Both the position numbers and the translations under genes were made by a program. The notes under the pieces were generated by a model. That model was given only the letters and a program-made list of their open reading frames with translations. It was not told the DNA's origin and searched no databases. Of a stretch of 52,545 nt of DNA, positions 48,599 to 48,919 are shown in pieces. Every line of letters begins with the position of its first letter. Position 1 is the first letter of the stretch. Source of the stretch: a virus (lineage: Duplodnaviria > Caudoviricetes); the IMG/VR virus record IMGVR_UViG_3300036715_003055, positions 1 to 52,545 of that record; one strand, given 5' to 3'.

Positions 48599-48919
48599 CA
48601 GCTTGCTGGGGAGGTAACTCTCCACACTATATTTCCCACCAATCATACATTTGATGGCAGGGCTGATGTATGAGGGGTATAGTGGCTCATGAACAAAGAC
48701 ATGGAGGAATTTATTCTGGGAGTGACGACTTCCACACTATATTTCACAATTAAGTGGTATGGTGATCCATGAACAGAGACATGAGAGCAAGCCTGCTTTT
48801 TGCTGGAGGAAAATTCCTCCTTACGCATATATAATCATGGATTCGTAAGCAGGGTTGAATCCGTGTGGTATGTAAGTAACTCATGAAATGACATGAGAGC
48901 GACTGCCCCCTGCTTTTTT
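48599..48919 (+). ncRNA. Tandem array of three multi-helix RNA units (motif B)
   Basis: Units at about 48603, 48713 and 48800, each with a CTGG-led tetraloop hairpin, a central stem and a CATG...CATG hairpin. GCAGGG loops are complementary to 3' C(C)CTGC-TTTT tails. Confidence 0.65.

Follow-up and report, generated by a model that had tools for sequence, protein, structure and literature searches.

What lies at positions 48599–48919 of IMGVR_UViG_3300036715_003055, a 52.5-kb viral record (Duplodnaviria; Caudoviricetes; 26% complete by CheckV estimate) whose full 52,545 nucleotides are called the window here? A preliminary description of this interval, made from the letters and a list of open reading frames (ORFs), had proposed tandem four-way-junction and pseudoknot RNA units of an undescribed class, directly upstream of a Csx-like gene and acting either as a riboswitch or attenuator of that gene or as decoy RNAs in trans. 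The combined evidence of folding, homologue comparison and family searches indicates that the interval is an uncatalogued structured non-coding RNA, seen to date in only a few large phages. It would stand outside every known family; its general kind, the phage structured small RNA or leader that ends in a terminator, is already known.

An uncatalogued structured RNA in two forms

The 15th release of the Rfam covariance models gave 0 matches at gathering score across the whole window, and at E≤10 the sole match inside the element was U4 small nuclear RNA, at 14.9 bits versus the 46 needed. ARAGORN reported 0 tRNA or tmRNA genes in the window and in the contigs L070, L167 and L265, the first two of which carry relatives of the element (see below). 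In the literature searched, which did not extend to the supplementary tables of one catalogue of phage structured RNAs (PMC10690425; it might appear there as an unnamed candidate), no description of the RNA was found. Under translation table 11, the + strand of 48595–48969 contains no ORF of at least 40 aa. With TAG read as Gln, both ORFs of at least 50 aa in the interval lie on the - strand, and under table 4 three + strand ORFs (65–84 aa) appear, each needing two to three TGA read-throughs; coding under either code was rejected. Together with compensatory changes in other phage contigs, the empty Rfam result upholds the proposal of a structured + strand RNA of an undescribed class.

The predicted fold of the + strand of 48595–48925 has an energy of -110.5 kcal/mol (z = -4.09, equalled by 0 of 100 shuffles), compared with z = -1.83 and 5 of 100 shuffles for the - strand, which argues that the fold is real and strand-specific. 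Regular-expression searches recovered every motif of the preliminary description at its position. The H1 hairpins start at 48608, 48718 and 48805; CACTATAT occurs at 48625 and 48735, and GTAT[AG]GTG at 48677 and 48757; CATGAA..GACATG occurs at 48688, 48768 and 48882 and at no other site in the window. The two inserted hairpins have their arms at 48643/48666 and 48836/48857 and their GCAGGG sequences at 48657 and 48849; CCTGC (48792) and CCCTGC (48908) are each followed by a T-run; and the closing strands are CTTGCT (48602) with AGCAAG (48786) and TTGCT (48800) with AGCGA (48898). The only direct repeat of at least 14 nt within the element is one 18-nt pair.

Three sequence units are therefore present, as had been proposed, but they form two RNAs and not three: units 1 and 2 fold under one closing helix as a double form (48599–48801), and unit 3 is a single form (48800–48919). 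Their parts are listed here, with the adjoining gene.

48599..48607, + strand: 5' strand of closing helix P1 of the double form (CAG plus CUUGCU), pairing with 48786–48795; equivalents of 10 bp in L070 and 8 bp in L167
48608..48623, + strand: H1, a 6-bp hairpin with a GUAA loop (fold, regular expression); 3 of 6 H1 pairs changed on both sides in the unit alignment
48625..48684, + strand: P2 (CACUAUAU/GUAUAGUG plus CCC/GGG) with the inserted hairpin 48643–48673 and its GCAGGG loop (fold, regular expression)
48686..48705, + strand: 5' strand of P3 (CUCAUG), A/G-rich loop AACAAAGA and 5' strand of P4 (CAUGGA), pairing with 48766–48785 (minimum-energy fold, RNAalifold)
48706..48717, + strand: single-stranded joiner ending UUAUUCU, which is identical in 3 homologues (alignment)
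48718..48764, + strand: H1' (48718–48733) and P2' (48735–48764), forming an inner three-way junction (folds, unit alignment)
48766..48785, + strand: 3' strand of P4 (UCCAUG), loop AACAGAGA and 3' strand of P3 (CAUGAG) (folds of the window, L070 and L167)
48786..48801, + strand: 3' strand of P1 (AGCAAG, bulged C, CUG), then UUUUU (sequence, alignment)
48800..48902, + strand: single form, with P1 (UUGCU/AGCGA), H1 48805–48820, P2 48821–48879, inserted hairpin 48836–48865 and P3 hairpin 48880–48897 (fold)
48903..48919, + strand: 3' tail, with CCCUGCUU complementary to loop AAGCAGGG (48847–48854) and a U-tract at 48914–48919 (pairing test)
48970..49404, + strand: Csx20-like gene, starting 50 nt past the U-tract (PADLOC, NCBIfam)

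In the double form, P1 pairs CUUGCU at 48602 with AGCAAG at 48786 and is extended over a bulged C by pairing of CAG (48599–48601) with CUG (48793–48795). Both the minimum-energy fold and RNAalifold join the 5' CAUG box of unit 1 to the 3' box of unit 2 (P3, 6 bp) and the 3' box of unit 1 to the 5' box of unit 2 (P4, 6 bp), so that two A/G-rich octamers are opposed in a near-symmetric 8x8 internal loop. This nested arrangement is the minimum-energy structure of three homologues, those of the window, L070 (z = -5.53) and L167 (z = -3.85), with no shuffle as good. The CAUG-AA..GA-CAUG hairpins of the preliminary description are thus present as boxes in all three units, but those of units 1 and 2 pair between units in these folds. 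When the two-hairpin version was applied to 7 units, 4 pairs were invariant and one outer pair was open in 3 of 7; separate CAUG hairpins appear to gain no support, and the nested version would account for the same substitutions without bulges. Two resemblances noted by eye were dropped: a K-turn in the A/G-rich internal loop, for which not all copies retain the G required at the key position, and a tRNA-cloverleaf mimic in the four-way junction, which shows no D- or T-loop signatures and no match to the tRNA model.

The single form folds as a four-way junction of its own P1, H1, P2 and a CUCAUG/CAUGAG hairpin, its P3 being loop-capped. Its minimum-energy fold coincides with the centroid (z = -3.72, equalled by 0 of 200 shuffles), and the covariance model of the unit, R1, scores it at 43.6 bits (E 6.8e-8). 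The preliminary description had also paired the GCAGGG loops with the downstream CCUGC and CCCUGC tails, and this part of it divides between the two forms. In unit 3, loop AAGCAGGG and tail CCCUGCUU make 8 contiguous pairs (-14.1 kcal/mol). As good a match came up in only 10 of 20000 shuffles and, for random segments, in 41 of 20000, and it is hence non-random; in the single form it is this loop-tail helix that lies against the U-tract, in place of P1. The unit 1 pairing is weak, however, with 5 Watson-Crick pairs (268 of 20000 shuffles do as well, as do 2178 of 20000 random segments of the window) that overlap and compete with the P1 extension, and the ~30-nt inserted hairpin that carries the loop is missing from L070, L167 and the variant contig X4. 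By this comparison the pseudoknot is not conserved as a family feature. The inserted hairpins of units 1 and 3 have unrelated stems and keep a common GCAGGG loop, which argues that the loop matters.

Relatives and compensatory change

Pattern scans covered three collections, of viral, metagenome and genome contigs, and yielded two relatives and a variant. L070 lies in a 154-kb viral contig (~75% complete) that holds two units and none further in the whole record; L167 is a 1.4-kb metagenome contig with two units; and X4, a 410-nt Logan contig, represents a fourth lineage with unit 1 lacking the inserted hairpin, followed by units 2 and 3. The unit pattern matched 6 loci among viral contigs, of which L070 alone is genuine, and 111 metagenome and 78 genome-contig stretches, in which a script counted 192 matches, 13 of them past a crude filter and 2 genuine (both in L167). 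Scored with R1, true units reached 74–84 bits and all other pattern loci at most 24.1 bits. This check confirmed L070 and L167 as relatives. A third pattern (joiner, H1' and P2') matched L070 only, and a blastn search of 48030–48960 against 50,697 GenBank phage records gave no match. The 16-mer CATGAACARAGACATG hit 66 loci in viral contigs, and all were discarded as chance or coding matches. Within the window, R1 also gave a weak match at 14221–14314 on the - strand (20 bits, E 0.016), which falls at a gene junction and is probably due to chance.

Over aligned columns the RNA is 80% identical to that of L070 (134/168) and 89% identical to that of L167 (145/163), compared with 59% for the neighbouring gene orf77, and RNA modules were the only matches when the 8-kb L070 locus was aligned to the window by blastn. 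Judged by these alignments, the RNA modules are the most conserved nucleotides of the locus. The substitutions that do occur tend to keep pairs: across homologues the top pair of P1 is U-A, C-G or U-G and a pair of its extension is G-C or A-U; three P2 pairs are changed on both sides in the unit alignment; and L070 and L167 have G-C where the window has A-U as the distal pair of P4. Of the 161 cells that the 7 units provide, 90.7% are paired, compared with 40–65% when partners are slid by 1–3 columns, and the covariation score of 0.302 was reached by 1 of 500 shuffles; since the units are related sequences, aligned so as to fit the model, these pair statistics are supportive and not proof. Among the X4 and metagenome variants, C48788U and A48786G keep P1 pairs as G-U and U-G, C48824U turns a pair into a wobble, and A48734U adds one. 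Others fall in loops, with three in the loop of H1' (all the X4 changes inside H1') and one in the loop of P2'.

Termination, release and alternative functions

Each of the four copies ends in a helix followed by a U-run: 10 bp and U7 in L070, 8 bp and U8 in L167, and, in the window, P1 with U5 and the 8-bp loop-tail helix with U6. In all four, by sequence, a stable helix stands directly before the U-run, as in an intrinsic terminator. A simple scan found no local terminator hairpin at either 3' end, and misses the element because its helices are long-range. Since the last long-range helix directly adjoins the U-tract, the folded RNA would be its own intrinsic-terminator hairpin. In X4 the U-run between the two RNAs is mostly lost and the array-final one is kept. 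Alternative pairings noted are those of the CAUG boxes and a pentamer match to a neighbouring tRNA-like RNA (see below); no separate terminator/antiterminator pair was seen, and a closing helix placed at the U-tract seems to fit a stand-alone RNA or simple attenuator better than a classical riboswitch.

We favour, with a probability of about 0.45, a new phage non-coding RNA cassette with a built-in terminator, which would release a stable, paired-end RNA and allow read-through to the next gene. As we picture it, the cassette would sit inside an accessory island of genes directed against type III CRISPR. Each copy would fold with its 5' and 3' ends paired by P1 around the four-way junction of H1, P2 and P3, and in the double form P3 would lead through the 8x8 A/G-rich loop to P4 and the second pair of hairpins, H1' and P2'. 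Transcripts arriving from upstream would mostly stop at the U-tract, releasing an RNA whose paired, protected ends may make it stable, and a read-through fraction would continue into the next gene, here that of the Csx20-like ring nuclease. Once released, the RNA would itself be the functional product, most likely a platform or decoy that binds a dimeric protein, a putative partner that is suggested by the near two-fold symmetry of the fold.

Several observations weigh against this reading. The distance from the U-run to the next start codon is short (50 nt in the window, 22 nt in L070 and 32 nt in L167), and the scan of the window showed no promoter-like site in the gap between U-run and following gene; expression of the downstream genes thus seems to require read-through, an arrangement as compatible with cis-regulation as with a stand-alone RNA. 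(The promoter scan overall gave no more sites than were found in shuffles.) A terminator hairpin with a structured 'loop' of 100–190 nt would be unusual, the protein partner is so far putative, and none of the 13 listed sequencing runs that contain the stretch is an RNA run; run X6 yielded no sequence that aligned to it. The CAUG-box helices vary at one pair only, so that the nested and two-hairpin folds are not firmly separated. Two X4 substitutions, 48682 G>A and 48809 G>A, break pairs unless compensated (16 of 18 X4 substitutions were seen). Finally, the sample is small, with three independent sequences plus a single variant that are all rather similar, and much of the 'conservation' could reflect shared ancestry.

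A cis-acting attenuator or riboswitch, in which the fold would bind a small molecule (such as a cyclic or linear oligoadenylate) or a protein and the stability of P1 would set transcription into the ring-nuclease gene, is a serious alternative, though less probable than the cassette. In 3 of 3 contigs the RNA lies 22–50 nt upstream of a gene on the same strand with no promoter-like site between them, and in 2 of 3 that gene is Csx20-like; the multi-helix junction has a conserved joiner and loops, the palindromic CAUG boxes permit two alternative folds, and the arrangement in the window is tandem. Yet no competing antiterminator was seen, and because the terminator helix is also the closing helix of the fold, ligand binding would turn the gene off. 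The downstream gene of L167 is different (a 72-aa ORF without a Pfam family), two distant Csx20 loci lack the RNA, the stems are conserved in sequence as much as the junctions, and no cyclic-oligoadenylate riboswitch class appeared among the papers listed on the two topics. More improbable is an active role in phage counter-defence against type III CRISPR signalling, whether as an oligoadenylate-responsive attenuator that tunes the ring nuclease or as a decoy or sponge; in the decoy version, the near-symmetric adenine-rich loop, which lies between palindromic helices, would capture either a dimeric sensor or effector of the CARF type or the ring nucleases themselves. It is unlikely that the element serves purely as an elaborate intrinsic terminator, or to stabilise the 3' end of the preceding message (that of ORF66 in the window, of Csx3 in the relatives). 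It does begin 5 nt past the ORF66 stop codon and has U-runs after the last helix in 4 of 4 copies, and other long-range stems with U-runs were noted by eye near the Csx3 gene in L167 and L070; but a conserved, covarying interior of 170–200 nt far exceeds what a terminator needs, the P2 boxes, CAUG boxes and joiner are conserved above the level of a neighbouring protein gene, the element is duplicated in the window, and its internal U-run is dispensable in the X4 variant.

We consider it very unlikely that the element mimics a known defence RNA, either a ToxI-like type III toxin-antitoxin array or a CRISPR repeat of the kind used by RNA anti-CRISPRs. Repeated RNA units followed by a terminator and a protein gene are the layout of toxIN loci, and the surroundings are of the anti-CRISPR kind. 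These units, however, are 70–110 nt long, diverged and fold together; Tandem Repeats Finder detected no array in 48000–49000, and no toxin family was found downstream. Nor was the unit pattern ever present more than once per locus, in the 78 genome stretches and the 80 of 111 metagenome stretches that were listed, so that it is not a CRISPR repeat there. For protein-RNA activity against type III systems there is a precedent in AcrIIIA1 (PMC11662646). Barely credible, lastly, is the absence of any RNA element, with the interval being a coding region in another code, a DNA-level site or a product of chance. Reading TGA as Trp does open a 195-aa ORF on the - strand (48307–48894), but 6 stops would have to be recoded for it, it overlaps with ORF66 of the opposite strand, and the homologues are separated by indels of ~30, 2 and 1 nt that break any frame. 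The fold is strand-specific and uses G-U pairs, and the compensatory changes likewise speak for an RNA.

Ring-nuclease genes, comparable systems and adjoining modules

The genes from 46061 to 52158 all lie on the + strand. The phage occurs in samples of microbial mat or sediment. A Pfam scan of 60 window ORFs identified a ribonucleotide reductase, a family A DNA polymerase, a PhoH protein with a PIN domain and sigma-70 region 2; the DNA polymerase shares only ~27% identity with its counterparts in crAss-like and Pseudanabaena phages. The gene directly downstream of the RNA matches Csx20 in PADLOC (PDLC01397, E 1.6e-12) and NCBIfam CAS_Csx20 (E 1.9e-8; 34.7 bits, under the equivalog cut-off of 70), and 8 homologues were found for it, all tagged PF27247. 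Csx20 is presented as a demonstrated cA4 ring nuclease family in a study that also carries a survey placing it in five phage genomes (bioRxiv 10.1101/2024.09.24.614671). The gene at 51793–52158 on the + strand is a second, shorter Csx20-like gene (PADLOC Csx20, E 1.5e-5), 32% identical to the first, and the fragment therefore has two ring-nuclease-like genes 2.4 kb apart.

The Csx-like gene that the preliminary description placed downstream of the RNA is thus Csx20-like by both PADLOC and NCBIfam, but the RNA is not tied to it. The downstream ORF is a truncated Csx20-like one in L070 and an unrelated 72-aa one in L167. When the Csx20-like protein was used alone as a query, viral contigs gave no match; an alignment query found two distant loci (L068 and L069), both without the RNA. 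Just upstream of the RNA, both relatives encode Csx3, of the Crn3-type ring nuclease family (PF09620, above cut-off; 1596–1889, - strand, in L070 and 607–900, + strand, in L167). No tblastn match to Csx3 was found in the window, which covers only ~26% of its genome, and a Csx3 query of the collections returned its own contig only. A Csx20-like gene thus lies downstream in 2 of 3 contigs and Csx3 upstream in 2 of 3, and it is through this gene neighbourhood alone that the RNA would be linked to type III immunity. Three related large phages keep the conserved RNA cassette, a tRNA-like RNA and a pseudoknot motif in an island with Csx3- or Csx20-like genes, and these three RNA modules are shuffled among the phages.

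How does the element compare with known RNAs? In bacterial small RNAs, a last helix and U-tail form the intrinsic terminator; the present fold also ends in a helix and 5–8 U, has paired ends and occurs as a tandem duplicate, but its terminator helix is long-range and encloses 100–190 nt of junctions, and no promoter was found in the scan. Riboswitch aptamers, all of them in Rfam, include the glycine tandem and SAM-I, with its four-way junction and pseudoknot. Here too there is a four-way junction, its linkers close to zero in length, and one copy has a loop-tail pseudoknot; the site upstream of a gene and the tandem layout are shared as well; unlike those aptamers, the element has no Rfam match, no separate expression platform that we could see and no conserved pseudoknot, its downstream gene is inconstant, and its examples are few and closely related. 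The toxIN loci consist of near-identical short repeats of the pseudoknotted ToxI RNA, a terminator and the gene of a toxin endoribonuclease. The order of RNA repeats, terminator and protein gene, the presence of a pseudoknotted RNA and the setting of phage-host conflict are shared, whereas the units here are far longer, diverged and joined in one fold, and the gene that follows them encodes no toxin endoribonuclease.

Mimics of CRISPR repeats serve as RNA-based anti-CRISPRs, and the window likewise places a phage RNA in an anti-CRISPR setting, with a tRNA-like RNA nearby (48113–48283), although the type III link here is one of gene neighbourhood. The AcrIIIA1 protein reportedly works with t(m)RNA fragments against type III systems (PMC11662646). 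Like the present element, the large RNAs GOLLD and ROOL are phage-borne and ornate and lie beside a tRNA-like element or tRNA genes, and they assemble into multimers. The palindromic CAUG boxes would permit intermolecular pairing of the single form, and multimerisation on this basis would be conjecture. The RNA here is much smaller and matches none of the Rfam models. Both GOLLD and ROOL are described as large ornate RNAs of phages and prophages (bioRxiv 10.1101/2024.12.08.627333).

Phage counter-defence may include this element as an RNA component that has gone unrecognised. Among viral responses to type III CRISPR signalling, ring nucleases are the best known, and if the RNA regulates or works with them, it would add an RNA layer to anti-CRISPR biology and offer compact objects of 125 nt and 200 nt for structural and binding studies. 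Were the attenuator or decoy proposal true, cyclic-oligoadenylate signalling would for the first time have been shown to be read or intercepted by an RNA. Even with a role unrelated to CRISPR, it would provide a clean case of a fold that is its own terminator hairpin and a new family for RNA catalogues.

The tRNA-like RNA, ~170 nt long, lies at 48113–48283 (+ strand) in the window and at 1395–1563 (- strand) in L070, and the copies are 82–85% identical; a pattern scan of viral contigs for it matched L070 only. Its parts are a bulged hairpin with GCUAA/UUAGC as closing strands, a hairpin of 11 bp and a tRNA-like end; the latter has an acceptor-like stem, a D-arm and a T-arm (GGUUCGA) and lacks an anticodon arm. 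With the Rfam tRNA model, 48225–48279 reaches 22.8 bits (cut-off 29), and ARAGORN reports nothing. In L070 this RNA stands directly 5' of the double form and is followed by ACCA, and it may be a processing handle. The Pfam scan also identified a PolyA_pol head domain, of the nucleotidyltransferase family that includes CCA-adding enzymes, and a Lactamase_B_2 domain, and these proteins could bear on the maturation of the tRNA-like RNA. The loop of its second hairpin shares a pentamer with the 5' strand of P1 (UUGCU in the window, ~48200–48209 and 48603–48607; UUGCC in L070, ~1470 and ~1374–1378) and is therefore complementary to the 3' strand of P1; the match could represent a kissing interaction, an antiterminator alternative or chance.

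The third module is an H-type pseudoknot motif, found at 48037–48115 and 48300–48358 (+ strand) in the window and, 83% identical, at 949–1000 in L167, directly 5' of the RNA. It has a GAAACUU/AAGUUUC stem, a C-rich loop complementary to the G-run after CUUUAGUAG and an embedded hairpin; Rfam gives no match for it, and a scan for its exact pattern turned up no other viral contig. Two further repeats accompany these modules. A 16-nt A/T-rich direct repeat, GAT[A/T]ATAAAAATTAAT, occurs at 48354–48369 and 48923–48938 (+ strand), with a similar sequence near ~45750; in two places it follows an RNA module and precedes the ribosome-binding site of the next gene, and it may be a phage promoter or leader element. 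Boxes of the form (T)TTCGACAT / TTTTGACAT lie at 49405–49500 and 49880–49930 (+ strand), in the intergenic spaces after the Csx20-like gene and after the next gene, and one of them coincides in part with TCGACA-17-AATAAT at 49427, the top promoter-like site in the scan.

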